Shown here: in pieces, positions 10,816 through 36,398 of the stretch
How the letters are laid out: every line of letters begins with the position of its first letter
Position numbering within the stretch: the first letter of the stretch is position 1
Assembly (NCBI GenBank): GCA_964586205.1
Contig: CAZPIG010000004.1
Coordinates: 1-44,664, forward strand
Direction: 5' to 3'
DNA: 44,664 bases
From: an uncultured Halobacteriales archaeon
GTDB lineage: Archaea; Halobacteriota; Halobacteria; Halobacteriales; CAZPIG01
The notes under the pieces: generated by a model
Databases searched by the model: none
What the model was told of the DNA's origin: nothing
What the model saw: the letters and a program-made list of their open reading frames with translations, nothing else
Translations under genes and position numbers: made by a program

Positions 10816-10889
10816 GCCAGGGTAGCTTAGTTGGCCAGAGCACTCGATTTGTAATCGAGGGGTCGTGGGTTCGAATCCCACCCCTGGCT
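10816..10889 (+). tRNA. tRNA-Thr: tRNA-Thr (anticodon UGU)
   Basis: Manual cloverleaf: acceptor GCCAGGG/CCCTGGC, D stem GCTT/GAGC, anticodon stem CTCGA/TCGAG with loop TTTGTAA, variable loop GGGTC, T arm GTGGG-TTCGAAT-CCCAC, discriminator T. 74 nt, CCA not encoded. Confidence 0.9.
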
Positions 10890-11046
10890 CCTCTCGGCGC
10901 GAACGGACGTGAGCGCCGTGAGTGCCTTTGGTGGGATTCGAACTAGACGAGACGCAGCCCGCACAACGAGGCGAGCGAAACGAACGGAGTGAGTGAAGCG
11001 AGCCGAGTGAGCAGGACCGTCTCGGCGTAATTCGAATCCCACCCCT
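10890..11046. repeat. mosaic repeat next to the tRNA: GGCGC hairpin module plus a short element bounded by inverted tRNA T-arm copies (copy F)
   Basis: GGCGCGAACGGACGTGAGCGCC (10896-10917) is nearly identical to 44321-44341. GGTGGGATTCGAAC (10930-10943) is the reverse complement of tRNA positions 10869-10882. TTCGAATCCCACCCCT (11031-11046) is a perfect 16-nt direct copy of 10870-10885. The core between them is rich in GCGAGCG, as in the MITE family. Confidence 0.7.
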
Positions 11047-13971: not shown

Positions 13972-14105
13972 CGGAGCGAGGCTGGGCGTCACCACGTCGT
14001 CCGTCTGCCCAGCACGAACACCAGCAGCGCCATCGGTAGCGCGCCGACGGGAGGGTCCACTGGCGACACGACCGGAGAGCCAATCATGAGAGCATGAGCG
14101 AACAA

Positions 14106-14190
14106 CCGATGGTTGATTCGAACGTAGCTAGAGGCAACTAACGCAACAGCGCGACAAGACCGTCTGCAACGTTGTTCGAATCGCCTTCCT
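14106..14190. repeat. short T-arm-like inverted-repeat element at the left edge of the OLD islet (copy O)
   Basis: GATTCGAAC (14115-14123) and GTTCGAATC (14174-14182) form an inverted repeat. AAGACCGTCTGCAACGTTGTTCGAATCGCC parallels CAGGACCGTCTCGGCGTAATTCGAATCCCACC of copy F (11013-11044). Confidence 0.4.
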
Positions 14191-14371
14191 GGCTGTTCTC
14201 TGGGCATCTCTTACTGGGCAGGCGAAAATCCGGATGTTGGCGCTGAACTAGACAAAAGATATCCGTGCCAAAAAGGGCAGCCAGGGGTTGCCAGACTGTA
14301 GTTTCAGGAATTCAACTGTTGGTTTGTTATTGGCGACTATACTCTCGACGCGAATATTTTAATACACCAAA

Positions 14372-14380
14372 TTTATATAT
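14372..14380 (+). promoter_or_regulatory. TATA-box-like element of the OLD nuclease gene
   Basis: TTTATATAT is centred about 27 nt upstream of the ATG at 14403. Confidence 0.5.
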
Positions 14381-14402
14381 TGGGAGTTATTTGATACAAA
14401 CC

Positions 14403-16364
14403 ATGGCAGATATTGTGAGTGTTAGAATTGAAAATTACAAATCAATCGTTGATACAGAATGGGTTGATATCCACCCTGAAACGACAGTATTAATCGGCCC
14501 AAATGAAGCAGGAAAAACTAACTTTTTAGAAGCCCTCGGAAAATTCCCGCCAGGTAAGACCATCCGCTCAAGAGATTTAAGTGAGTACATTACTGAAGAG
14601 GGTGAACAGACACCGGATTGTAGGATATCGATAGAGGTTGAAGATCTTCAGGTAGACGTAACAGCAAGTATAGGCCAAAGACGGTATAGGGAAATTGCAG
14701 GAGAATTCTCAGGCATTATTCATAAATATAGAGGAGGAACCTATGAGTTCGTTGCAAAAAACGACATATCCCCACTAGCTGACTACCAATCCTCACGGAA
14801 TCAATTCATTGACCGCCTTATTGCAAAGTGGTCAGAAAGATTTAGAGAAACTCCAGATCTCCCAACTATCCCAGGTCGTAGGCTCCAAGCGACAGGTGCG
14901 GATAGGGACACAGATGAAAAATATGAACTTCTTATGAGGACCTTTGAAAACGTTCAGGATACACTGAATCAACAAGAGGAATTGGATGATGATCTGGACC
15001 ATCAACTATCTCAGATTGAAAGTGATTTAACTAAACTTAGAAATATGGAGCCAATCGGCAAAGTGCTCGCCAAACAGGCATTTAACCCCATTTTCTATAG
15101 GGAATTCGACTCTGTTCCGGATCGAGTTGCGTACAGTGATCTCTCCAGCTCCCAAGGGAAATATAGAACTATTTTGAACTTCATTGGTATCCCGCCTGAT
15201 GAACTCCAGGAGATGCCATCACCTGAAAGACGGGAACGTATACAGAGAGGTATTAAGAGATTTGAGGAGATTTTTAATAACTACTGGCCAGGAGACGATA
15301 TTGGATTTAATTTAGACCTAGTCGGCGAGAATATTGAGTTGTTAGTGTCCGATTCATGGGGAACAGAGCAATTCCTATCCCAACGAAGCCAAGGATTCCA
15401 GCATTTTCTATCATTTGTTATAGAATATGTTCAATACAGTGGAATGACCGAAAATATGGTATTGGTTGACGACCCTGATCTGCATCTTCATCCTGAGGCA
15501 CAGAAAGAGTTCCGAGCAGCACTGAATAATATAGCCGAAGAACAACAAATGATATATTCGACACACTCTCCGTACATGGTGGACAAATCCGAACTTAGTA
15601 TGCTGAGACTTGTGGAAAAAGATGATGAATCTAAAGGAACAGAGATTGTCGCCAACTTTTCCTTGTCGGATAGAATTAAAGATGACGTTCTAAGTCCTAT
15701 TAGAGCATCACTGGGAGCCACTTTTGCGGATTCGTTGTTTGCTAGTAAACACACTATTCTCGTGGAAGGATATACTGATAGAGTTTATATAAATAGAATT
15801 GATAAATACATAAAGAAGCAAAATGGGGAGAGCGCCTTAGACTACGATGTCACCATATTAGATGTTGGAAGCGCTTCAAATCTGCTCAAGTATGCTCGGT
15901 TACTTGAATCTGAAGGTTATGAATATGCAATATTCGCCGATACAGATAATGCCGGGAGAAGAGCTGTTGAGAAGATAAAATCCAGTGAAACTGTCTCTGA
16001 AGACAAAATTGTAACACCCTCGGATATTCTTGTGGATGAATATGGAAATGAAGAGGACAAAGAAATTGAAGATCTCTTTGCTCCAGAATTCTATAGCGAA
16101 CAAGTAGCAGATTGTTATAATATAGAGATTGACGAAGTCCATGATGCCCTAAATGGGCCAGAGTCGCCTCCGGAAGAGTCAATAAAGGGCCTTTTTAAGT
16201 GCTTACAGAATAAAGAGGAACGTGAATTAGAACCCTTCGATAAGTCTAATGTTGCCGATGCTATAGATGAAGGAATATATAGTGGGAATGTTAACGTCGA
16301 TGATAATACATTGGGGAACTTCATAGAATTATTCGCCGAATTCAACGATGCGATGAATTCTTAA
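14403..16364 (+). CDS. OLD-family ATP-dependent nuclease (ABC-type ATPase plus C-terminal Toprim), stand-alone
   Basis: Walker A GPNEAGKTNFLEAL, a long helical insertion, Walker B MVLVDDPDLHLHP, H-loop-like YSTHSPYM. Toprim motifs HTILVEGYTDRVY (Glu) and YAIFADTDNAGRRA (DxD). About 32-35% G+C on sampled lines. Confidence 0.85.
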   Translation: MADIVSVRIENYKSIVDTEWVDIHPETTVLIGPNEAGKTNFLEALGKFPPGKTIRSRDLSEYITEEGEQTPDCRISIEVEDLQVDVTASIGQRRYREIAGEFSGIIHKYRGGTYEFVAKNDISPLADYQSSRNQFIDRLIAKWSERFRETPDLPTIPGRRLQATGADRDTDEKYELLMRTFENVQDTLNQQEELDDDLDHQLSQIESDLTKLRNMEPIGKVLAKQAFNPIFYREFDSVPDRVAYSDLSSSQGKYRTILNFIGIPPDELQEMPSPERRERIQRGIKRFEEIFNNYWPGDDIGFNLDLVGENIELLVSDSWGTEQFLSQRSQGFQHFLSFVIEYVQYSGMTENMVLVDDPDLHLHPEAQKEFRAALNNIAEEQQMIYSTHSPYMVDKSELSMLRLVEKDDESKGTEIVANFSLSDRIKDDVLSPIRASLGATFADSLFASKHTILVEGYTDRVYINRIDKYIKKQNGESALDYDVTILDVGSASNLLKYARLLESEGYEYAIFADTDNAGRRAVEKIKSSETVSEDKIVTPSDILVDEYGNEEDKEIEDLFAPEFYSEQVADCYNIEIDEVHDALNGPESPPEESIKGLFKCLQNKEERELEPFDKSNVADAIDEGIYSGNVNVDDNTLGNFIELFAEFNDAMNS

Positions 16365-16771
16365 CAAAAGGTATCAAACGCTGATAAGAGGTGAGGTTGA
16401 CTAAATAATGTCTCTAGCGTTGTTATCGTCTACTCAGCACTATGATTATCCGCTGTTTGTATTTCTGACACAAAACCCGTTTCCCATATGTGCTATACCT
16501 TCCCACACCACCGAAATCGACCACAATCGTTTGAAAGCGCTTTTATGGGGTGGCACACTACCAGCGAGCACCGACCCGCGCGGGGTCGATGACGTCCGCC
16601 GCCGCAGGGACTCCGGGGCGCACGAAACCGTCAGAAGCGCGACGAGGCGCGACGAAAACGGACGACGCGACGCACGCGTCGTGCGAACGCCGCGAGACGT
16701 CGACGGCGCGAAGCGACGAACGATGCACCCCCGGCGGCGGGACGCGAGCCAGCGCGCGGGAGGAGACCACC

Positions 16772-17372: not shown

Positions 17373-17867
17373 ATGGTCCAGACCCGCGAGTGCGACTTCT
17401 GCGGCGACGACATCGAGCCCGGGACGGGGACGATGGTCGTCCTCGCCAACGGCGCGACCGTCCACTACTGCTCGTCGAAGTGCGAGAAGAACGCCGACCT
17501 CGGCCGCGAGCCCCGCGACGTCGAGTGGACCGCGGAGGGCCAGGCCGGCGAGCAGCGTGCTGCCGCGGCGACGGAGCCCGAAGCGGGCGAAGAGCCCGGT
17601 GGGACCGAGGCGGGCGAAGTCGAAACGGAGGCGGACGAAGCCGAGGTGGCCGACGCCGAAGACGAGACGACGGAAGCCGAAGAGGAGGAGCCGGAAACCG
17701 AAGCCGAGGTGGCTGACGCCGAGGCCGAAGACGATGCGGCAGGAGCCGAGGACGAGGGGGCCGAGGCCGAAGACGAGGCGGCCGAAGCGGCAGACGCGGA
17801 CGACGCCGAAGCGACTGACGCGGACGCCTCGGACGACGCCGACGAGGCCGAGGAGGTCGAGAGCTGA
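17373..17867 (+). CDS. rpl24e: 50S ribosomal protein L24e with an acidic C-terminal tail of about 100 aa
   Basis: [40 protein letters not shown] is the L24e zinc-binding core. An Ala/Glu/Asp/Thr tail follows. The stop overlaps the ndk ATG (TGATG). Confidence 0.9.
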
Positions 17868-18331
17868 TGGCCGACCGCGAGCGCACCTTCGTCATGGCCA
17901 AGCCGGACGCCGTCCAGCGCGGCCTCGTGGGCGAGCTGATATCCCGCCTGGAGGACCGCGGGCTGAAGCTCGTCGGCGCGAAGATGACGTGGATAGACGA
18001 CGAGATGGCCGAGCAGCACTACGAGGCCCACACGGACGAGCCCTTCTTCGACGACCTGAAGGCGTTCATCACCTCCGGGCCGGTCCTGGCGATGGTCTGG
18101 GAGGGCCAGGACGCCGTCCGGCAGGTCCGGCGGACGATGGGCGAGACCGACCCCCTGGAGTCCGAACCGGGGACCATCCGCGGCGACCTCGGGCTGGACC
18201 TCGGCCGCAACGTCGTCCACGGGTCGGACCACGAGGTCGAGGGCGACGCCGAGCGCGAGATAGCGCTGTTCTTCGACGACGACGAGCTACACGACTACGA
18301 GCGCGCCGACGAGACCTGGCTGTACGAGTAG
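17867..18331 (+). CDS. ndk: nucleoside-diphosphate kinase
   Basis: [36 protein letters not shown]....NVVHGSD (active-site His). Confidence 0.95.
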
Positions 18332-18479
18332 GGCCGGAGCGATAGAGTCTGCTGTTAGGACTGATTGCACGGTTGCTGGACATCCGAAAGCCGCGGCCTG
18401 CTCGCATTTCAGGTTCCGGTGGACTCGTGGCGTCACCCTCCGGGTTACCTAGGAACAGAGGTTGAGGGTGAAGACCAAG

Positions 18480-18487
18480 ATTATTTT
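18480..18487 (+). promoter_or_regulatory. TATA-box-like element of the islet wHTH gene
   Basis: ATTATTTT is centred about 28 nt upstream of the ATG at 18511. Confidence 0.4.
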
Positions 18488-18510
18488 GTGCCCCAGACTA
18501 ATCATCCAAT

Positions 18511-18801
18511 ATGACGGAAAACGAAGTCTGGTCTCCTCGAATTGGTGTGAGAAGAACGGAAAGAGAAAGCATTCTCTTGTTCCTTTCACAGGAGGAAGCG
18601 GCTGAGAAGAGAGAACTGAGGAATGAAATTCGCATGACTCGAGATGGGGCCGAACAGCATCTGAAATATTTAGAAGAAAATGGTTTCGTGGATAAAACGC
18701 TGGTCAGTACAGGGATGAAATCTCAGTATTCCCTTACCGAGGAAGGTAAACGCCTAGCAGCAGAAATTCGATGGGGTGATGACTCTCAAAGAAAGCCTTG
18801 A
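18511..18801 (+). CDS. small winged-helix transcriptional regulator
   Basis: ..ILLFLSQEEAAEKRELRNEIRMTRDGAEQHLKYLEENGFVDKTLVSTGMKSQYSLTEEGKRLA is a wHTH of ArsR/PadR/MarR type. AT-rich codon usage. Confidence 0.6.
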   Translation: MTENEVWSPRIGVRRTERESILLFLSQEEAAEKRELRNEIRMTRDGAEQHLKYLEENGFVDKTLVSTGMKSQYSLTEEGKRLAAEIRWGDDSQRKP

Positions 18802-18807
18802 ACGAGA

Positions 18808-19593
18808 TCATGATAATGAGTTGATCATGAAGAGCACCTCAAATTGAGGTGTCACTCTATCATTTCGATACTTCACATTCCTTAGAATGCCGGTGAGATA
18901 TACATGTCCATCAGTCTTGGTTAGTTCCTCATATTTCCTGTCTTTAGGGTATTTTCCTGCAGTAACGCACTCAATTGTGTTGTCGTCAAAAGTGACTTCA
19001 AAATCAACAACGGGCACAGTGGTCGTTCCTTGGCTAACCTGGATCGCGCTATTCGCACAGCCGTTTTGACCACATATCTCAATTGTTTCGTTTGTATATA
19101 TCGGTTGTGCAATACGAGAAGTGTGTCCTTCCGGACACCGGTAGCCTATCGTTCGAGCTTTTCGTTCCCTTACAATGTCTTCTCCAATTGGAACATGAAA
19201 AGAAACCAATCTGTTTGGTTTCTTGACCAATGTGTCAAAGGTATTTATCTCGAATCCAGGGTGTCCAATTGATCTACTCCTAGAGGAGCAGACGTGGAGA
19301 AACAGTAAATCGTAATCACGACCTTTCGCTGTATCAATACCTTCTTCGTCCACGAAGTCAGCAAACCCCTTCCTTGCGTCTCTGAGGACTTGATCTGGGA
19401 ATCTACGAAGATGTTCAGTCTCGATATTGAAATCATACTCGCCACTGGCAGGGTTTAATTCGCCTACACGGAGGGTCAGAGAGTTGTAGATTGGCTCTTC
19501 TGCAGCTGATTTCAGACTCCGGTACCCCGAGCTGGCATACTTCGCAGACCAGTAGTTCTTCCAATCGCTAGTATAATCTGGAGGTTCGGGCAT
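18808..19593 (-). CDS. orphan MCM N-terminal-domain-like protein (helical subdomain, zinc motif, OB fold; no AAA+ module)
   Basis: The order of elements parallels archaeal MCM N-domains. (1) ..FNIETEHLRRFPDQVLRDARKGFADFV (helical A subdomain). (2) LVSFHVPIGEDIVRERKARTIGYRCPEGHTSRIAQP...EICGQNGC (strand, C-x3-H...C-x4-C zinc motif). (3) VVDFEVTFDDNTIECV.. (OB strands). (4) ..DGHVYLTGILRNV (the GD-x-V-x-V-T-G-I-x-R-like end). The ORF itself is confident; the domain call is by eye only. Confidence 0.45.
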   Translation of the reverse strand: MPEPPDYTSDWKNYWSAKYASSGYRSLKSAAEEPIYNSLTLRVGELNPASGEYDFNIETEHLRRFPDQVLRDARKGFADFVDEEGIDTAKGRDYDLLFLHVCSSRSRSIGHPGFEINTFDTLVKKPNRLVSFHVPIGEDIVRERKARTIGYRCPEGHTSRIAQPIYTNETIEICGQNGCANSAIQVSQGTTTVPVVDFEVTFDDNTIECVTAGKYPKDRKYEELTKTDGHVYLTGILRNVKYRNDRVTPQFEVLFMINSLS

Positions 19594-19692
19594 AAACGAC
19601 CAAGAGCCTGTTACTTGAAGTAGGTTCCGATGGTTCTACCCTTCTACTCCTAAGAGAATGTCTTCGGAAACATTTTACCAGTAACAACCTCA

Positions 19693-20376
19693 ATGGATAC
19701 CAAACGAACCAGAGGTTACCAGTCCATGTCAGACCAAATTTTCATATCCCACAGTAGGGAGGACAAGGATCTCCTCGACGAGCTTGATCGGGTTTTCGGG
19801 AAAGTAGGTCTAAAGCAGTACAGAGCTAGCTTTGAGGATCAATCTCCAGCAGTCAGCGAAGACCTAAAATCCCAGATAAATGACTCAGTAGGGATGTTTG
19901 TCGTATTAGGCAGACGAGCACAAGCGAAAACGCATACGATGATTTGGATTGGCTGGGAGGCCGGGATTGCCATCCAAGCTGGAATTCCAGTTTGGATTTT
20001 AGAGGATATGCAATCGAATGTGACGCAGCCTATTCCGAGCTTTACCGATTATGTTCTTTGGAACTCTCAAGAAAATAAACAAAAAAGGATTTTGAGAGAC
20101 GTGATTGAGAACGAATTCGTCAACTCCCGTTCTCGTGATGTAACAGAGTACTTCGAACCCCAAACAAAGGACTCAAATAGCCTTGTGGGTCAAAATAGAA
20201 ATAACGCCAACGTTCGGAATAGTCAAGTCAACAAGGAGACACAGGGGATTAGGTGTCCATACGATGACTGTGGCGAGAAATTTGTCATCCGGTTTGAAGG
20301 CCCCAGCGAATTTAATTGTCCATCCTGTAGACAAGCCGTTGTGTTAGAGGAAGAATCAGATCCATATTCGTGGTAG
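19693..20376 (+). CDS. ThsB/DUF1863-type TIR-like domain protein with C-terminal zinc ribbon
   Basis: QIFISHSREDKDLLDEL.. then ..SVGMFVVLGRRAQAKTHTMIWIGWEAGIAIQAGIPVWILED (TIR-like layout with a W..E helix). C-terminal CPYDDC..(16)..CPSC. An alternative ATG lies at 19726. Confidence 0.55.
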   Translation: MDTKRTRGYQSMSDQIFISHSREDKDLLDELDRVFGKVGLKQYRASFEDQSPAVSEDLKSQINDSVGMFVVLGRRAQAKTHTMIWIGWEAGIAIQAGIPVWILEDMQSNVTQPIPSFTDYVLWNSQENKQKRILRDVIENEFVNSRSRDVTEYFEPQTKDSNSLVGQNRNNANVRNSQVNKETQGIRCPYDDCGEKFVIRFEGPSEFNCPSCRQAVVLEEESDPYSW

Positions 20377-20553
20377 TTCACTACATGACTAAGATCATCG
20401 CCGCATAGTTGTTGTTTTCCTCTCCAGCCTCGCCCATCAGTAGTTCGAGCTCCAATCAAAGCGAATGGCGACACTCACGTCGCCGATAATGGGCATATTC
20501 CACAGTTGCCCGGAGCATGACGTTTTACGTCCCCCGACCCGAACCCACGTGGT

Positions 20554-22965
20554 ATGGATTACGAAACCACCCGGCGGGCCCTGCTGGGGCTCGCCGCTGC
20601 CGGCGGCGCGGCCGCGACCGTCACCGGGCCGGTGGCCAGCCTCGTCGAGCAGTTCGCCCCGCTGTCGGGGTCGGCGTGGGACGCCGCCGGCCGGGCCCCG
20701 GCGGGCACCGTCGAGAGCCCGCACGGGCCGGCGGAGGTACGTTACGACGACCACCACGTCCCGCACGTGTCGGCGGACTCCGAGGCGGCGGCGTACTTCG
20801 CCGTCGGCTACGTCCAGGGGTTCGACCGCCTGTTCCAGATGGACCTCGTCCGCCGGCTGATGGACGGCCGGCTCTCGGCGGTGGTCGGCGAGGCGACCGT
20901 CGACTCCGACGTCTTCCACGCGAAGATGGACTTCCGCGGCGGCGCGGACGCCTCGGTGGCGGCCCTCTCGGACACCCGGACCGAGCGGCTGGCAGAGGCC
21001 TACGCCGACGGCGTCAACGCCGCCATCGAGGGCGAGGAGCTGCCCCTGGAGTTCCGGCTGCTGGGCTACGAGCCGGAGCCGTGGAGCGTCGCGGACACGC
21101 TGCTGGTCGGGATGCAGATATCGTGGGGGCTGACCGGGAGCTTCAACACGCTCCGGCGGGCGGTGCTGCGCGAGCAACTCGGCGAGGAGACCTACCGGCG
21201 GCTGTACGGCCGGCCGTTCGACCACGGCGCGCCCATCGTCCGCGAGGGCCGGACCGGCGGCGAGGTCCACGGCACCGGCGAGCGCGAAGGGGCCGACGAG
21301 GACGCCCTCCGAAACGTCGACGCCGACTTCGTCGACTGGCTCGCACGCCACGAGCCCCCGCCGCTTCTGGGGTCGAATAGCTGGGTCGTCTCCGGGGAGT
21401 TCACCGACAGCGGCAGCCCCATCGTCTGCAACGACCCGCACCTGACGCTGATGGCCCCGCCGGTCTGGTACGAGCAACACATCGACGCCGGCGACGTGAA
21501 CGTCCGCGGGGTCTCCTTTCCGGGCGTCCCGTTCGTCATCATCGGCGAGAACGACCACGGCGCGTGGGGGTTCACCAACACCGGCGCGGACGTCGTCGAC
21601 TTCTACACCTACGAGACCCGCGAGCGGAGCGACGGCCCCGACCAGTACCGCTACGACGGCGAGTGGCGCGACTTCGACGTCGAGACCCGGACCGTCGAGG
21701 TGTCGGGCGGCGACGACCGCGAGGTCGAGGTGAAGAAGACGGTCCACGGGGCGTTCGTCGACCGGGAGGTGAACGGGCGGACCCGCCACGTCGGCGTCTC
21801 GTGGACGGGGATGACCGGCACCCGCGAGTCCGAGGCCGTCTACGAGTTCAGCCGCGCGGAGGGCATCGACGACTTCACGGCGGCCATCGAGAAGTTCGAC
21901 GTGCCGACCCAGAACGCCGTCTACGCCGACCGGGACGGCAACACGCTCTACTACGTGACCGGGAAGATACCCGTCCGCCAGGTCGACGGGCAGGTCGTCC
22001 GTGGCGACCGGGTGTTCGACGGGTCGGCGGGCGAGGCCGAGTGGGCGGGCTTCACGCCGTTCGGCCAGTCGTCGTGGGAGGGGTTCGTCCCCTTCGAGGA
22101 CAAGCCCGGCGTGGTGAACCCCGACTACGTCGGGACCGCGAACCAGCGACTGGTCGACGACCCCACCTACCCCATCGGCCAGGAGTACGCCTCGGGCTTC
22201 CGCGGGATGCGCATCTACGAGCGCCTCGACGGCGCGGTCGAGGCCGGCGAGGCCATCACGCCCGACCTCCTCGCCGACCTGCAGGCCGACACCCTCGACG
22301 TCCGGGCGCGGATGCTGGTGCCGGCCATCCTCGAGGCCCGCGACCGGATGCCCGACGCGGCCGACCGGTGGCTCGACGCCATGGCCGACTGGGACTTCCG
22401 GATGGACCGCGACTCCGGGGCGGCGCTCGCGTTCCGGTGGTTCTACGAGTACTTCCGCGAGGAGACGTGGGCCGACGACTACGAGGCCGCCGGCCTCGAC
22501 GACGGGTGGTGGCCCCAGGAGTGGGTGCTGACGACGCTGCCGGCCGACGACGAGCACTTCGGCGGCGACCGCGCGGCCGTGATGGCGACGGCTATGGAGC
22601 GCGCCGTCCAGCGCATCGACGAGGAGGGCTGGGAGACCTACGGCGACTTCAACCGCACCGCGCTGGACCACCAGTTCGGCTCGCAGGTCCCGGCGCTGAA
22701 CTACCCGCGGTACCCGACCGACGGCTCGTCGTACACGGTCTCGAACTTCCGACACACTTCCTCGGTGGGCAGTAGCTGGCGGATGGTCGCGCCGATGGAC
22801 GGCGACTCGCGGGGAGTCCTCCCGGGCGGCAACTCCGGGGACTACTTCTCCGAGCACTACAGCGACCAGCTACGGACGTGGGCCGACCACGACTACAAGT
22901 CGATGGCGCGCGAGGCGGCGGGCGACCTCGCTATCACCTTCGAGTCGGGAGGTGACGGCGGATGA
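20554..22965 (+). CDS. penicillin acylase family (Ntn-hydrolase, S45) protein, Tat-exported
   Basis: Tat signal TRRALLGLAAAGG. ..PPLLGSNSWVVSG.. carries the Ser nucleophile of the beta chain. Length of about 800 aa is typical. Confidence 0.9.
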   Translation: MDYETTRRALLGLAAAGGAAATVTGPVASLVEQFAPLSGSAWDAAGRAPAGTVESPHGPAEVRYDDHHVPHVSADSEAAAYFAVGYVQGFDRLFQMDLVRRLMDGRLSAVVGEATVDSDVFHAKMDFRGGADASVAALSDTRTERLAEAYADGVNAAIEGEELPLEFRLLGYEPEPWSVADTLLVGMQISWGLTGSFNTLRRAVLREQLGEETYRRLYGRPFDHGAPIVREGRTGGEVHGTGEREGADEDALRNVDADFVDWLARHEPPPLLGSNSWVVSGEFTDSGSPIVCNDPHLTLMAPPVWYEQHIDAGDVNVRGVSFPGVPFVIIGENDHGAWGFTNTGADVVDFYTYETRERSDGPDQYRYDGEWRDFDVETRTVEVSGGDDREVEVKKTVHGAFVDREVNGRTRHVGVSWTGMTGTRESEAVYEFSRAEGIDDFTAAIEKFDVPTQNAVYADRDGNTLYYVTGKIPVRQVDGQVVRGDRVFDGSAGEAEWAGFTPFGQSSWEGFVPFEDKPGVVNPDYVGTANQRLVDDPTYPIGQEYASGFRGMRIYERLDGAVEAGEAITPDLLADLQADTLDVRARMLVPAILEARDRMPDAADRWLDAMADWDFRMDRDSGAALAFRWFYEYFREETWADDYEAAGLDDGWWPQEWVLTTLPADDEHFGGDRAAVMATAMERAVQRIDEEGWETYGDFNRTALDHQFGSQVPALNYPRYPTDGSSYTVSNFRHTSSVGSSWRMVAPMDGDSRGVLPGGNSGDYFSEHYSDQLRTWADHDYKSMAREAAGDLAITFESGGDGG

Positions 22966-28629: not shown

Positions 28630-28911
28630 TCACCCCCAGTCGTCCGCCATCGGGTGGCCGCTGTCCTCGATGACGCCCATGGCGGCCTCGAAGGCGGCGT
28701 CGGCCGTCCCGAACTCCCCGTGGTGGGTCCACTCGCCCGACTGCTGGTCCGTGGTGTACACGTCGAACGCCCCGCCACGGTACTCGTGGGACTCGACGTA
28801 GAGCTCGTTCGCTACCTGTCCGTCGTGCTCGTCGTCTTCTGTTTCGTCGACGAGGAGGTAGACGCCCAGTTCTTTCCCGCCTTCGAGGTCGCGCCGGCGG
28901 TGCCACTGCAT
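28630..28911 (-). CDS. small acidic hypothetical protein
   Basis: 93-aa ORF with GC-rich third positions and acidic, His-rich composition. No family recognised. Confidence 0.5.
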   Translation of the reverse strand: MQWHRRRDLEGGKELGVYLLVDETEDDEHDGQVANELYVESHEYRGGAFDVYTTDQQSGEWTHHGEFGTADAAFEAAMGVIEDSGHPMADDWG

Positions 28912-29102
28912 GGCTTCTAGGGGTACGGGGGCCTAGTGGGTATAGGTGAGGGGGGATAGAGTGATCGTCGATGCTGATCCTAAAATTCACGTTTGTTAAT
29001 ATAGTTGAAAGGCATGGCCTTCTGGGGAAGTACCTCGATTCCTCGCTGCATGCCAAGTGAAGGACTGGACATGTGAACGGATTTTCTCTGGAGGATGCGT
29101 AG

Positions 29103-29110
29103 AATTAAAA
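29103..29110 (+). promoter_or_regulatory. TATA-box-like element of the OGG-fold gene
   Basis: AATTAAAA is centred about 29 nt upstream of the ATG at 29136. Confidence 0.4.
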
Positions 29111-29135
29111 GGTACTCGCTTTCTTGTCTTCTTCA

Positions 29136-29753
29136 ATGGCCATCAACTGGAATCGATGGGTCAAAATATACGAGTTTACAGTGGACGACCCATCAATAGA
29201 ATACAAGGATCCAGACATTCGAAATTGGACTGAGGAACGCGACCCACGTTTTAGCAACATCTCTTTAGAAATCCAGCAGCGGTCCTCTCCTCGTATTGGC
29301 CCTTTTGAACTTGCCAACATTACCAAATGGTTAATAGGAACTGACATTCTGAAAGGGCACGTAATGGATAATAATACAAGCACAGTGAAACGACAAACAG
29401 AGATAGCTTTCAGCCAATGTTCAAATCCAGCAGAAAGGATTGAGGAGCTAATCGCACTCAAAGGGGTGAGCGTGCAAGTAGCCTCAGCAGTTCTAACCGT
29501 ATACAATCCGGGTCGATTCGCTGTTATCGACCATCGCGTCCTTCGAGGATTAGCTGCTATTCGCCCAAGTCTTACCGACCCTGCAAACTATTCTCGATAT
29601 GCTGGATTCATTCAGTCACTAATAGATTACAACCAGAATCCGCAGACGTATCAGTTCTACATGGATGAGGTTCGCCAGATCGCGAATGCCGAAAATCTCC
29701 AACCAAGAGAAGTCAACATGGCACTATGGGCATTCGACCGCGATAACGTATAG
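29136..29753 (+). CDS. helix-hairpin-helix protein resembling the '8-oxoguanine DNA glycosylase OGG fold' family
   Basis: ..ELANITKW...(N/S-rich).. and ..ERIEELIALKGVSVQVASAVLTVYNPGRFAVIDHRVLRGL resemble the HhH motif (L..L.GVg...AS.iL.....P..f.i.D.r). ATG at 29136 (the ORF opens at TTG 29124). About 43% G+C on a sampled line. Confidence 0.45.
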   Translation: MAINWNRWVKIYEFTVDDPSIEYKDPDIRNWTEERDPRFSNISLEIQQRSSPRIGPFELANITKWLIGTDILKGHVMDNNTSTVKRQTEIAFSQCSNPAERIEELIALKGVSVQVASAVLTVYNPGRFAVIDHRVLRGLAAIRPSLTDPANYSRYAGFIQSLIDYNQNPQTYQFYMDEVRQIANAENLQPREVNMALWAFDRDNV

Positions 29754-29761
29754 CTTCACGT

Positions 29762-29818
29762 GTAGTGGGATGGTTTGTTGGACTATTAGTTTATGATTTG
29801 TGAACCGGCCCCCACTAC
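29762..29818. terminator. hairpin with T-tracts between convergent islet genes
   Basis: GTAGTGGG (29762-29769) pairs with CCCACTAC (29811-29818). The intervening loop is T-rich (TTTGTT, TTTATGATTT). Confidence 0.3.
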
Positions 29819-29828
29819 TTATACGCCA

Positions 29829-30305
29829 TCAGACCTTTTCTGGCTGTTCAACCACATAGACGACCCGATAGGGGAGGGTATTGAATGTAGAAGTCCACCT
29901 CAACTGGGACTCCCGAAGCCCATCGTTAACTGATTTCACTTCGACAAACAGATACTCAAATTCCTGTCTCGAGTGACATTGATACAGGAAGAAATCCGGC
30001 TTCCCATCTTGGGTGATCGCTGTCAATGGATGGATAGAATACAGTGGACCGAGCGAATAGTTATCCCTCAGGTGCTCTCTGAGTTCTTCTTGGAGTGCTT
30101 CTGGAACGCTACTATCATTCTGGAGTGCCCCCGATTCTATGGGAGAATCAAGCCCTACAACCTCATAGCCAGCGTCTAAATAATAGTCTGCAACAATACG
30201 CTCTGACTCGGTATTCTCGGTAGAGTATTCTACTGTCTGGCTATTTGAACCCACTTCACTCCCAAGCTCAACAAGAAAATAATCCTTCACATCGTCTGAA
30301 ACCAT
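29829..30305 (-). CDS. VRR-NUC (PD-(D/E)xK) nuclease domain protein
   Basis: ..ERIVADYYLDAGYEVVG.. then ..DGKPDFFLYQ....YLFVEVKSVNDGLRESQLRW..YRVVYV. This matches the VRR-NUC hallmark G-x-PD-hydrophobic ... hydrophobic-E-V-K-x-x-x-D-x-L-x-x-x-Q-x-x-W. Confidence 0.65.
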   Translation of the reverse strand: MVSDDVKDYFLVELGSEVGSNSQTVEYSTENTESERIVADYYLDAGYEVVGLDSPIESGALQNDSSVPEALQEELREHLRDNYSLGPLYSIHPLTAITQDGKPDFFLYQCHSRQEFEYLFVEVKSVNDGLRESQLRWTSTFNTLPYRVVYVVEQPEKV

Positions 30306-30498
30306 ACGTTGAAATCTATTTCGTCATCCAGGTATATGAACGTTGAATACAAATACTCTCATCTGATTGATAACAGTCCCAAACAGCGACTAGTCCTCGG
30401 GTAAAAAGCATTAGCTATTTTGATTGACCGCGATTGCGAAACTTCCTCGGATCACGATGTAATGGAATTGGCCAGTGTAGTAAAACGATGAATAGAGA

Positions 30499-31113
30499 CT
30501 ACTCATCAATTTCAACGGACTCATAGACGGCTAGCGCACGTCCATCAATATCATGATAGTACTTCGTAGAATCGTCACTCCTGAGGCCTCGTACAAACAT
30601 CCGGATGTCGTCTCCTGACGTCACTGTATTCACCACTAAGACAACTTTTCCCAGGACAGTGGCGATTGGAGAAACGGCCATGATGACCAGAGATGCTGCA
30701 AAAAGGTTGATGACGAACAAAGGAGCGAGCGTTATAAGCTGGTATTCTCCGACGTCGATCCAATTGCCTGAGATATAGTTATAAGGATTCTTTCCGTGAA
30801 GCATTGGTTTGAGTTTGACCTCAGAATGGTATCCAACCATCCCCGATGCAATCTCGTGGACCTTCTCATGAATGACTGTGTTAATGAATGCGATAAAGAG
30901 AACAATTATGATAGGAAAGAGGAGCTGAATCGGGTCTTCGAATTCGAGTATGACACCAATACGGCTCACTATCAGACTCTGCCTGATTCCTGGCGTATAG
31001 ACGAGAAGTGAGCCCCCGGCGACCAAAATCATCCAGACTACGGAACTCAGAAGACTCCGAGGCACAGCCTTCGGTTCAGTATATCCATTTGGAGACTCCG
31101 GCAGTTCACGCAT
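30499..31113 (-). CDS. DUF3267-like putative membrane zincin metallopeptidase
   Basis: HExxH (IHEKVHE) sits directly after a TM helix, with 3-4 further TM segments. ATG at 31113 (the ORF opens at TTG 31143). Confidence 0.5.
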   Translation of the reverse strand: MRELPESPNGYTEPKAVPRSLLSSVVWMILVAGGSLLVYTPGIRQSLIVSRIGVILEFEDPIQLLFPIIIVLFIAFINTVIHEKVHEIASGMVGYHSEVKLKPMLHGKNPYNYISGNWIDVGEYQLITLAPLFVINLFAASLVIMAVSPIATVLGKVVLVVNTVTSGDDIRMFVRGLRSDDSTKYYHDIDGRALAVYESVEIDE

Positions 31114-31317
31114 GTACAGGACTCCGTAGCGGCATCCCTTCAATCATGTCGCCATTCGCGTTTTCTATGTATTTCTAGAATGGTATAGAAACCATGCTGG
31201 TCGCTCCATTGGATAGGGGGCTCGACTTTATCTATTTCACAATCATCGGAACGGTCTACGTGAGTCTGGAGCTTTGCTGAAAAGCGCGTTCCTCAGTACC
31301 TATCCGCAAAGTGCCCG

Positions 31318-34585: not shown

Positions 34586-34641
34586 CCATCCCATTATTTC
34601 GTAGCCTCGCTTAAAGAACTTGGCTCTAAAACCGAATCGAA

Positions 34642-36150
34642 TTATGAATCGGGGTCGTTGATACTCGTATATTCACAGTCCAGCCACGTGGAGAGGTCCG
34701 TCGTAGTTTTGAGTGTGGTGTTGAACGACTCGCAGGGGCAATCGGTTCCCAGATACTCGTAGTAGCTCCATTGGAATCCGCCTCTCGTCTCCAGTTCGGG
34801 GGTAAGCCCGTCACCGGCTGGATTTTCGACCTGGATGGCAACACCAGCGGTGTTGTCAGTGGTGTCGGGAAAGTAATCACTGCCGGGACTATCCTCATTG
34901 AGACCAGTGAGCGGAAGATCCCAGTGCCATTGTGTTTGGTCCCCGTCCTGATTCTTCTGCACATCGTCACTCGTCATGGCATCCCCGTTCAGGGAGTATT
35001 CCACAATTATACTCGCGACACCACCCAACGGTCCAGTCACAGAATTGACAAGGTCGAGAACGAGCCCAATCATGTCGTCGTCGGGCGATGTATCGTTGTT
35101 TTGGCCATCCGGACGAGGGTTGTTTAGTTCGGTATTGAAGTTACTGTTATTAGGACCATGCTCAATGAAAGCCTCCACACCAGCCTGGTGGGGGAAACCA
35201 GATTTCTGGTCGCAGGGCATCAGCAGGGAGTCCGGAATCTCTTCGAAAAATCCATCCATATGCCATGGTTTCTGACTCGACTGGATGATCTCGTCGTAGT
35301 CAGATTCCACGTTCCCACTACTATCGTAGCGGACTTTCGCCGAAGTGCTGAACTCGTAGTCCCACGTCATGTTCACGAAGTCGTCGTCGCATCTGTCCGG
35401 GAGAGTGTGCGTTATCCCTCCTTCCATTGACGTTCGGTTCAGGATTCCCACATCGCCTCCATCTGCGTTCGTCGTTACGGAGTCCGTGGTCACCGATTCG
35501 GACAAGTCCTCGCCTTTGGCATCGGAAGTCGAAGTCTCCTCACTCGAAGCCATCCGCGAGACGTTCCGGATACTGTTATCCCGAGGAATCCCGGTCGCGG
35601 GGATCTGGATCTGGTCGAAGCCCGGGACCTGACCCCTGAAGCGCTCCGGATGGAGCGCAGAACCGATGGCCTCTTTGGTGAACCCACGGTCGGTCGCGCC
35701 CAGCGAGAACGCAATCTTCCCGTACCCCGGGGACGGACGCGTGAGCGTCCCGGTGGCTGTATCGCCGTCCGTTTCGAGATAACCCTTCAGGTGGAGGTCC
35801 TCTCCGTCCTCCTGAACGACGTGCTCCGGACGCCGCGACTCGAAGTAGTACCTCGATGCCGTAGGATGGGAATCCACGTCCTCGAGCGGTTCGTCCTCGC
35901 CGACCGGAACGACGAACCCCGCGAGCTTCAACGTCCCGGTAAGGCCGTTTTCGGTCAGCTCCAGTGTGGCAGTTGCGTCGCCTTGCTCCTTGTCCGTGAC
36001 CGGGTCGTAGCTCTTGCCGACGAACCGTCGCTTTCCTAGCTTCTCCGCCCCAGCGGACGAAGTGGCGAGGGTCGCGGCCCCGAGAACCCCGACAGTCTGG
36101 TTGAGTAGCGTTCGCCGTCTGATGGTCACCCCAACGCCTTCTTCCGGCAT
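34642..36150 (-). CDS. Tat-secreted protein of unknown function (lower-GC gene)
   Basis: TIRRRTLLNQTVGVLGAATLATSSAGA is a twin-arginine signal. The mature part is rich in Asp/Thr/Ser/Asn/Gly, with Cys residues clustered near the C-terminus (..TDCPCESF..WLDCEY). Composition is mixed, about 45-65% G+C on sampled lines. Confidence 0.7.
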   Translation of the reverse strand: MPEEGVGVTIRRRTLLNQTVGVLGAATLATSSAGAEKLGKRRFVGKSYDPVTDKEQGDATATLELTENGLTGTLKLAGFVVPVGEDEPLEDVDSHPTASRYYFESRRPEHVVQEDGEDLHLKGYLETDGDTATGTLTRPSPGYGKIAFSLGATDRGFTKEAIGSALHPERFRGQVPGFDQIQIPATGIPRDNSIRNVSRMASSEETSTSDAKGEDLSESVTTDSVTTNADGGDVGILNRTSMEGGITHTLPDRCDDDFVNMTWDYEFSTSAKVRYDSSGNVESDYDEIIQSSQKPWHMDGFFEEIPDSLLMPCDQKSGFPHQAGVEAFIEHGPNNSNFNTELNNPRPDGQNNDTSPDDDMIGLVLDLVNSVTGPLGGVASIIVEYSLNGDAMTSDDVQKNQDGDQTQWHWDLPLTGLNEDSPGSDYFPDTTDNTAGVAIQVENPAGDGLTPELETRGGFQWSYYEYLGTDCPCESFNTTLKTTTDLSTWLDCEYTSINDPDS

Positions 36151-36398
36151 GGGGTCAGTTTTGAATCACCATGAAAATGAATTTTTCCTATATACAGTTA
36201 GTGAAAATGGCCGCCTGGTATCAAATGACATAATGGTGTTCAGGCCCACGTGCTTCGAGCCGCCTCCGTCGGGCTGACCGTGGGGCGAGAGCGGAGCGGG
36301 ACGGTCGGGATACGATTTCACCGTCGGTTACCCGGTCTAAATTTGCGGATACAAATGACTGTCCGTATAGCTGCCGGTCGTCCACCGCCACGCCACCC

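Follow-up and report, generated by a model that had tools for sequence, protein, structure and literature searches.

A conserved divergent gene pair encoding a TIR–zinc ribbon protein and a motor-less homologue of the MCM N-terminal domain on a haloarchaeal low-GC islet: a candidate two-gene antiviral module

Positions 1 to 44,664 of contig CAZPIG010000004.1 of an uncultured Halobacteriales archaeon (assembly GCA_964586205.1), here called the window and numbered from its first nucleotide on the forward strand, have an overall G+C content of about 70% and contain four low-GC islets. The islet considered here lies between ndk and a penicillin-amidase gene at 18450..20450 and has a G+C content of about 0.43–0.50, as delimited by the composition profile and by the Pfam matches of its flanks. 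Measured in segments of 300 nt, the G+C content is 0.66–0.73 up to 18449, 0.42–0.50 over 18450–20399 and 0.67–0.75 from 20400, so that the drop noted between these two genes in a preliminary description of this DNA is seen (from about 0.70 to 0.43–0.50). The islet holds three open reading frames (ORFs), which are present in the ORF list as that description had placed them: one on the plus strand for a winged helix-turn-helix (wHTH) protein (18511–18801), one on the minus strand for a protein of 261 amino acids (aa) (18808–19593), and one on the plus strand for a TIR-like protein (19693/19726–20376). The remaining ORFs are short and overlapping. The second and third genes are oriented divergently and encode a homologue of the N-terminal domain of the MCM helicase that has lost the motor, referred to below as the partner, and a TIR–zinc ribbon protein, TIR-ZnR. 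The recurrence of this pair in other loci is the main subject of what follows.

TIR-ZnR is a 216 aa protein encoded at 19726..20376 on the plus strand, with a zinc ribbon at its C-terminus. The longest ORF begins at 19693 and would give 227 aa, which is the start that the preliminary description had adopted; however, the gene most likely starts at the ATG at 19726, because 23 of 23 homologues begin at an equivalent M-x-[DE]-Q-I-F. The protein matches the PADLOC ThsB model PDLC00436 (E=7.7e-9), and within its family the Pfam domains TIR_2 and ThsB_TIR are matched by 19 of 24 members (best E=3.6e-6) and 18 of 24 members (best E=3.8e-8), respectively. The AlphaFold2 (AF2) model has a mean predicted local distance difference test score (pLDDT) of 85.5 and a predicted TM-score (pTM) of 0.83, with strand-helix units alternating over residues 4–132. 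Foldseek searches with this model retrieve the TIR domains of SARM1, Roq1, RPV1, RPP1, SPARTA (8i87, 8spo) and SfSTING at E=2e-4 to 2e-3. These matches agree with the earlier assignment of a TIR/ThsB-like domain, and the peptide strings on which it was based (IFISHSREDKDLLDEL, WIGWEAG and CPYDDC..CPSC) are all found in the protein.

The TIR domain carries a WxxxE motif, W74-I-G-W-E78 (19945..19959, plus strand), whose tryptophan and glutamate are invariant in all 24 family sequences and lie within a predicted helix of the AF2 model (residues 69–84) that would correspond to the C-helix. This C-helix motif has been defined on W204 and E208 of AbTir (PMC10641520). E78, which is E89 in the 227-aa numbering, is the putative catalytic glutamate as judged by motif register rather than superposition, and TIR-ZnR may be an NAD+-cleaving enzyme. 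The TIR domain is followed by a variable linker, an invariant R158-N159 and a four-cysteine zinc ribbon, C177-x4-C182 ... C198-x2-C201 (20254..20328, plus strand), for which the model shows beta strands at block-mean pLDDT values of 84–94. All four cysteines are invariant across the family, in keeping with the zinc ribbon that had been read from the window protein. The ribbon (CPYxxCGExFxIRF...NCPSCRQ, residues 177–201) gives non-significant matches to CSL-type zinc fingers of the Kti11/Dph3 kind (E=0.2–0.5), and a search of the Protein Data Bank (PDB) sequences with the TIR-ZnR profile returned nothing significant.

The partner is a 261 aa protein encoded at 18808..19593 on the minus strand and is composed of a helical subdomain A, a zinc subdomain and an OB fold, with no AAA+ motor. 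Taken alone, its sequence matches nothing in Pfam, PADLOC or NCBIfam, and a word-indexed single-sequence search of 5.8 billion proteins retrieved only the protein itself. The preliminary description had called it an orphan, a label that was overturned by the neighbours of the TIR homologues and by an exhaustive profile search. The genes divergent to the TIR homologues encode proteins 37–56% identical to the partner. A profile of four sequences retrieved only four further members, and the exhaustive hidden Markov model (HMM) search of 1.84 billion representatives yielded 30 clusters, all of them 232–282 aa in length. Orphan calls that rest on word-indexed searches are thus unreliable for fast-evolving families.

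A 33-member profile of the partner family matches the MCM N-domain of Pyrococcus furiosus (PfuMCM-N, 4pof) among PDB sequences at E=8.4e-9, with profile positions 24–248 aligned to chain positions 28–252. It also matches 4me3 (E=7.4e-8), 8x7t (E=1e-3) and 1ltl and, more weakly, MCM6 and MCM7. Comparison of the partner with the MCM N-domain by hhalign gave a probability of 96.4% (E=1.1e-9) over 199 columns, and Pfam MCM_OB is matched by three of the 33 family members. Foldseek searches with the partner model gave 393 PDB matches at E<=1e-3, and the 50 listed, at E of about 1e-8 to 1e-7, were all MCM proteins and included the isolated N-domains 1ltl and 4ywl. Profile, hhalign and Foldseek results therefore all agree with the earlier guess of an MCM-N-like protein; on these comparisons its homology to the MCM N-terminal domain is real and extends over the whole length.

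Like the MCM N-domains of P. furiosus (4pof/4pog) and MthMCM-N (1ltl), the partner has the order subdomain A, zinc subdomain, OB fold and shares with them full-length profile and fold similarity. The zinc ligands and the arginine of the TGILR strand also align. The predicted zinc site, C153-x3-H157 ... C174-x4-C179 (19057..19137, minus strand), is aligned to the Cys/His of the PfuMCM zinc site; all family members share C153, H157 and C179, and 32 of 33 have C174. Unlike MCM, the partner lacks the AAA+ ATPase and the C-terminal winged-helix domain, has a zinc site of the C-H-C-C type and belongs to a tiny, islet-borne family (30 clusters in 1.84 billion representatives). It is not a helicase, because the protein stops at the OB fold without an AAA+ domain and the representatives are all 232–282 aa long. 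This family of motor-less MCM-N homologues is the notable new element of the locus.

The arginines of the MCM single-stranded DNA (ssDNA)-binding motif (MSSB) of PfuMCM are R124 and R186 (PMC3970758). At the corresponding positions, the partner family has mainly E/S/D and D/T/E/S, with basic residues in only one and three of 33 members, respectively, and the window protein has E138 and E199. DNA sensing and canonical MCM-type DNA binding are unsupported, because the MSSB arginines are lost and just two basic columns are conserved. The preliminary description had spoken of an MCM N-terminal DNA-binding ring; its MCM-N homology stands, and the DNA-binding ring finds no support in residue conservation, the arginines being mostly replaced by acidic or polar residues. 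In real MCMs the N-terminal domain drives ring formation (PMC3970758), and the partner may likewise oligomerise. Pfam, PADLOC and NCBIfam searches recognised neither a ligand-binding domain (SLOG, Macro, SAVED or CARF) nor a toxic domain in the partner, and the viral structures of BFVD gave just weak generic OB/SSB matches. A short contig (L040, 1–1003) encodes a distant homologue, P0040, immediately after a gene fragment whose product looks by eye like a contractile-tail tube protein.

An OB-fold neighbour suggests a nucleic-acid context, and it could be asked whether the TIR-like domain is a NADase at all or instead an N-glycosidase (of nucleosides or nucleotides) or a 2-deoxyribosyltransferase-like enzyme that acts with its OB-fold partner on nucleotides or nucleic acid. 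One of the 24 TIR-ZnR members weakly matches Nuc_deoxyrib_tr (E=6e-3), and Foldseek mixes TIRs with flavodoxin-like folds such as PurE. This explanation is nevertheless very improbable, as TIR_2 and ThsB_TIR dominate the family matches, the WxxxE motif is a signature of TIR domains and the partner has no conserved basic DNA-binding residues.

The TIR-ZnR family comprises 23 other clusters, all of which come from metagenome or Sequence Read Archive (SRA) assemblies. The upstream side can be viewed in seven TIR loci whose protein is at least 67% identical to that of the window. In six of these (L001, L002, L003, L007, L037 and L039 in our numbering) a partner gene lies head-to-head with the TIR gene, and the window makes seven. 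The spacers are 63–140 bp long across the seven loci; in the window the shared divergent intergenic region measures 132 bp (19594..19725), and both the window and L037 carry AAACATTTTACCAGTAAC. Co-occurrence of the TIR-like gene with an MCM-N-like gene elsewhere, proposed in the preliminary description as a check, was thus found in the form of divergent neighbours in seven independent loci, and TIR-ZnR and the partner are a conserved divergent pair in independent contexts. Mean identity among the seven pairs is about 75% for TIR-ZnR and about 42% for the partner, in agreement with a sensor that diversifies around a conserved effector.

The flanks of the pair differ in every locus. The pair is accompanied by a resolvase and an OLD/AriA/GajA-like ATPase in L001, by a polysaccharide deacetylase and a glycosyltransferase in L002, and by a 490-aa protein of no assigned family in L003. 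In L039 the start of the downstream ORF is integrase-like by eye only. In L006 a tyrosine integrase adjoins the partner gene, and the contig breaks off on the TIR side. Wherever flanks are available (window, L001, L002 and L003) the G+C content of the module is below that of its surroundings: in L002 the pair by itself forms the lower-GC patch (0.55–0.57 vs 0.62–0.69), and in L001 the islet is larger than the pair. A small circular element had been suggested by TIR contigs of 1716–1751 bp and by a wHTH gene on the other side of the pair in L003, and this candidate was rejected as L037 and L039 are merely fragments cut inside the partner gene.

Neither TIR-ZnR nor the partner has a match in PLSDB (72,556 plasmids), INPHARED (50,697 phage genomes) or IMG/VR (2.9 million contigs), and an origin from a plasmid, virus or provirus was rejected on these grounds. 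The islet also has no larger provirus or plasmid around it, a setting that the preliminary description had regarded as speaking against a defence module. Among the 185,579 species representatives of GTDB, searched with TIR-ZnR only, there are three distant relatives at 24–32% identity, one of which, from Bathyarchaeota, retains the zinc ribbon and has no partner-like gene beside it. The module is rare and patchy.

These distributions bear on whether the pair is ordinary cargo of a mobile element, with the MCM-N homologue and the TIR-like protein serving an integrated plasmid or virus remnant in its replication, maintenance or regulation. Archaeal mobile elements do capture MCM genes, and recombinases lie near copies of the genes, namely the resolvase of L001 and tyrosine integrases in L006 and L011, beside the ORF of L039 that is integrase-like by eye only; the distant partner homologue of L040 likewise stands beside a phage-tail-tube-like gene fragment. 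Such a role appears unlikely, however, as the plasmid, phage and IMG/VR sets contain no match to either protein, no helicase, primase or Rep gene lies alongside the pair, and the pairs of the window and of L002 stand alone between housekeeping genes. Moreover, we know of no replication role for a TIR domain with an intact catalytic motif.

We tentatively favour, at a probability somewhat short of even, the reading that the islet harbours a two-gene TIR-based antiviral module of the abortive-infection type, transferred from one haloarchaeon to another by small low-GC islets. A function in conflict or defence is suggested because the TIR domain is of the immune type with an intact motif, the partner evolves fast, the islets are mobile and patchily distributed, and OLD-type nucleases lie nearby. 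Such nucleases are found near the pair in two loci, adjacent to it in L001 and on a neighbouring islet (14265–16364) in the window. Antiviral immunity by a TIR NADase works in haloarchaea, as seen for TIR-SAVED in Haloferax volcanii with the virus HFPV-1 (bioRxiv 10.1101/2025.06.19.660554). The candidate undescribed defence module of the preliminary description is therefore retained in part: its domains and the conserved pairing hold, the orphan status and the wHTH protein as a core component do not, and a role in defence is suggested by the features given above.

In the proposed mechanism, the MCM-N-like protein would be the obligate partner, which has lost the motor but retains subdomain A, zinc subdomain and OB fold as an oligomerising scaffold. 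This fast-evolving protein would act both as the infection sensor and as the assembly platform. A viral cue would lead it to form or rearrange an oligomer, which would dock TIR-ZnR, probably via the zinc modules, and thereby bring the TIR domains together. Their proximity would turn on the NADase, as in SPARTA, so that NAD+ is depleted and the infected cell is stopped. The wHTH protein would be an optional regulator or the product of a passenger gene. Assigning the sensor-scaffold role to the partner and execution to TIR-ZnR is favoured because of the asymmetry in rates (75% vs 42% identity) and because there is no other effector; the islet ORFs and the Pfam and PADLOC scans reveal no separate effector gene.

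A number of observations weigh against the antiviral module as proposed. The window TIR-ZnR taken by itself scores 20.7 bits with TIR_2, under the gathering cut-off of 28, and 16.8 bits with ThsB_TIR, for which the cut-off is 21.2; its Foldseek matches to TIR domains are modest and interleaved with PurE, which has another flavodoxin-like fold. Confidence in the partner model, built on an alignment of five sequences, is low (pLDDT 62.8, and below 50 in the zinc region), and its TM-scores to MCMs are 0.26–0.35. The partner has lost both ssDNA-binding arginines of MCM, and its conserved basic columns are only two, R74 and R238. There is no co-phylogeny signal between TIR-ZnR and the partner (Mantel r=0.04), in a test that is weakened by partial sequences, and TIR genes without an MCM-N-like partner exist in L004, L005 and the L011 clade. 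The association with defence islands is thin, as it is seen in two loci only, and a divergent, non-operonic arrangement is unusual among known TIR systems.

The loci without a partner differ in what stands next to the TIR gene. In L004 (1349–2811; TIR 69% identical) the upstream co-directional neighbour encodes an unrelated 259-aa protein without a family match. In L005 (195–3134; TIR 49% identical) it encodes an unrelated 449-aa protein, also without a family match, and ahead of the 449-aa gene lies a phosphoribosyltransferase (PRTase) gene. A TIR clade of 53% identity (L011 = L012 = L016; L013 = L014; L015) is partner-less, and in L011 and L013 two genes for small transmembrane (TM) proteins lie divergently upstream of the TIR gene. 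A degraded partner gene was not found upstream of the TIR copies of the L011 clade. In L011 (7000–11500; the same in L012 and L016) the TIR gene belongs to a low-GC islet of 4.5 kb that is inserted behind aIF5B in another genome of 70% G+C; a tyrosine integrase (355 aa), a TM protein (104 aa) and an acidic protein (192 aa) are also encoded there.

This swapping of neighbours around a TIR gene (the MCM-N-like gene in seven loci, the 259-aa and 449-aa proteins of L004 and L005, and the two small TM proteins of L011 and L013) is reminiscent of Thoeris, and the best profile matches of TIR-ZnR are ThsB-type. The main alternative, possible though rather doubtful, is that the pair is Thoeris-like with the roles reversed, such that TIR-ZnR, with its zinc ribbon as the sensor, detects infection and makes a signal derived from ADP-ribose (ADPR), and the MCM-N-like protein, as a new effector, binds it in the form of an oligomer and arrests the cell, for example by interference with replication. 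In the main text of a survey of Thoeris, neighbour swapping is used to predict effectors, giving 29 types, and one of these effectors, ThsG (DUF6650), is described as having no known domain and an unknown mechanism and as being predicted by AlphaFold3 (AF3) to form a homo-hexamer (Yirmiya et al., bioRxiv 10.64898/2025.12.03.692087). The same main text mentions no MCM, OB-fold or zinc partner. The lack of a recognisable ligand-binding or toxic domain in the partner also argues against this explanation, as does the conservation of TIR-ZnR together with its zinc ribbon (75%) beside a rapidly diverging partner (42%). In Thoeris type I it is ThsB that is the more variable and ThsA the more conserved component.

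The pair shares with Thoeris a small ThsB-like TIR protein with an intact motif, a two-gene unit on mobile or defence-type islands and the swapping of neighbours. It differs in that no ThsA (SIR2-SLOG), Macro, caspase-like, DUF2270 or DUF6650 effector occurs among the window genes scanned. In contrast to types I–XI and the predicted types, the partner is an MCM-N homologue that matches no PADLOC model, and the two genes are divergent. In addition, the TIR protein is here the conserved component and not the variable one, and the host is an archaeal halophile. On its gene content, the pair lies outside Thoeris as currently defined, lacking a recognised effector. Pfam and PADLOC scans of the window genes likewise found no SIR2/SLOG, CD-NTase, prokaryotic Argonaute (pAgo) or STING, so that the absence of a known TIR-system partner nearby, as the preliminary description had it, holds for the genes scanned.

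NAD+-degrading toxins with protein antitoxins are known, and parallels between them and TIR NADases have been pointed out. A toxin-antitoxin or addiction function would have TIR-ZnR as the NAD+-degrading toxin and the MCM-N-like protein as the neutralising antitoxin, which together stabilise the islet; a tight two-gene unit that persists on mobile islets without other genes is consistent with this. We consider it highly unlikely, since the genes are divergent and not co-transcribed, the putative antitoxin is larger than the toxin, and the TIR gene survives without the MCM-N-like partner in several lineages. Toxin-antitoxin and abortive-infection functions are not mutually exclusive.

The derivation of the partner from a replicative helicase allows a further, decidedly unlikely reading, in which the partner is a mimic of the N-terminal tier of the host MCM and serves as a decoy, guard or poison subunit. 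As a decoy or guard, it would bind the factors with which viruses or plasmids hijack or inhibit the host MCM, and this binding would trigger the TIR NADase. As a poison, the activated partner would co-assemble with MCM rings and block replication. Mimicry would account for a conserved scaffold and zinc site, for the loss of the DNA-contacting arginines and for a fast-evolving surface. If this is true, archaea would have their first replisome-mimic immune component, and a stand-alone MCM N-domain would for the first time be assigned a function.

The antiviral module that we favour can also be compared with other TIR systems. SPARTA and the TIR-APAZ proteins of short pAgo systems share the TIR fold match and, in the proposal made here, the logic of a non-enzymatic, machinery-derived partner that controls an oligomerisation-dependent NADase. 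Unlike them, the islet has no Argonaute or APAZ domain in Pfam and PADLOC scans, its TIR protein bears a C-terminal zinc ribbon, and its partner comes from a helicase N-domain without the ancestral DNA-binding arginines. The haloarchaeal TIR-SAVED protein, an effector of CBASS, follows the antiviral logic of a TIR NADase in a haloarchaeon, which was shown there in H. volcanii and is proposed here; the present islet has no SAVED domain and no cyclase, and its sensor and partner are entirely different. No paper linking TIR with an MCM N-domain was found in the literature that could be searched, and PADLOC-DB v2 holds no model for a pairing of TIR with MCM-N.

TIR-based immunity is common to bacteria, plants and animals, and its archaeal versions are barely explored. 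If the favoured reading is true, the islet would provide a TIR system whose partner derives from the core replication helicase. This would be an apparent case of domain exaptation, in which the MCM N-domain has been recruited into a conflict system. Haloarchaeal defence genes appear to spread as 2-kb low-GC islets without integrases between housekeeping genes. The module is testable in an existing experimental system, H. volcanii with HFPV-1 and NAD+ assays.

The third gene of the islet encodes a 96 aa wHTH protein (18511..18801, plus strand) that exceeds the Pfam cut-offs for HTH_34 (27.2 bits, cut-off 27) and HxlR (25.0 bits, cut-off 20.8), as expected from its earlier designation, and falls just under those for HVO_A0261_N and HTH_45. 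The wHTH gene is accessory and no core part of the module, because its recurrence is limited to L003, where it occupies a different position. This homologue, in one of the six other paired loci, lies downstream of the TIR gene and is 65% identical over 26 aa at the N-terminus; the preliminary description had counted the wHTH protein as a component of the module, which is not borne out. The protein has no match in IMG/VR. It weakly matches the Pfam family 'wHTH-PRTase associated' (E=1.5e-3) and PADLOC PRTase_III-A (E=4e-3), and these matches, together with the PRTase gene of L005, may point to a link with PRTase conflict systems.

An archaeal TATA-like A/T box, ATTATTTT, can be read on the plus strand at 18480..18487. 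Its centre lies 27 nt before the wHTH ATG at 18511, which is where the preliminary description had seen such a box, and from what is known of haloarchaeal promoters it is a putative promoter element of the wHTH gene. A 12-mer, AGGTTCCG(G/A)TGG, occurs at 18411–18422, before the wHTH gene, and again at 19622–19633, about 30–40 nt before the start codon of the partner gene. A near copy, AGTTCCGGTGG, is found at the same place in the intergenic region of L037. This repeat could be an operator or could have arisen by chance.

The genes that flank the islet have the identities given in the preliminary description. On the left is ndk (17867–18331; NDK, PF00334, E=7e-53), which itself follows an archaeal cluster that resembles L7Ae-S28e-L24e in a by-eye reading of the ORF translations. 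On the right is the penicillin-amidase gene (20554–22965; Penicil_amidase, PF01804, E=9e-190). Look-ups of identical NDK and S28e proteins, made to find a relative with an unoccupied ndk–amidase junction, retrieved nothing. The other window genes that were scanned are housekeeping genes and encode PGK, an ABC transporter, Asd, an AI-2E transporter and DUF7110. No RNA genes were found in the islet by the Rfam search. It also contains no tRNA gene, the sole one of the window being at 10816–10891. None of the islet ORFs encodes an integrase or transposase, as had been stated before, and nothing convincing in the way of direct repeats, target-site duplications or terminal inverted repeats is present at the islet edges.

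The other low-GC islets of the window also carry genes of their own. The second (14100–16400, G+C about 0.38–0.42) is 2 kb away, across the L7Ae-S28e-L24e-ndk cluster, and encodes a single 699-aa OLD-family nuclease (ORF 14265–16364, plus strand) with an AAA_15 domain and an OLD-like TOPRIM domain (PADLOC Old, E=2.9e-33), a stand-alone defence-type gene without an integrase. The third (28900–31300, G+C about 0.45) encodes proteins without a PADLOC match, namely a 209-aa protein of no assigned family (29124–29753, plus strand), a VRR-NUC nuclease (29829–30305, minus strand, E=3e-7) and a zincin-like membrane protein of the DUF3267 family (30499–31143, minus strand), and could be another small conflict module. 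The fourth patch (34600–36200) has a G+C content of 0.54–0.58 and carries an ORF on the minus strand (34642–36150), whose product matches nothing in Pfam or PADLOC and is a very acidic protein of 502 aa with a signal-like N-terminus.

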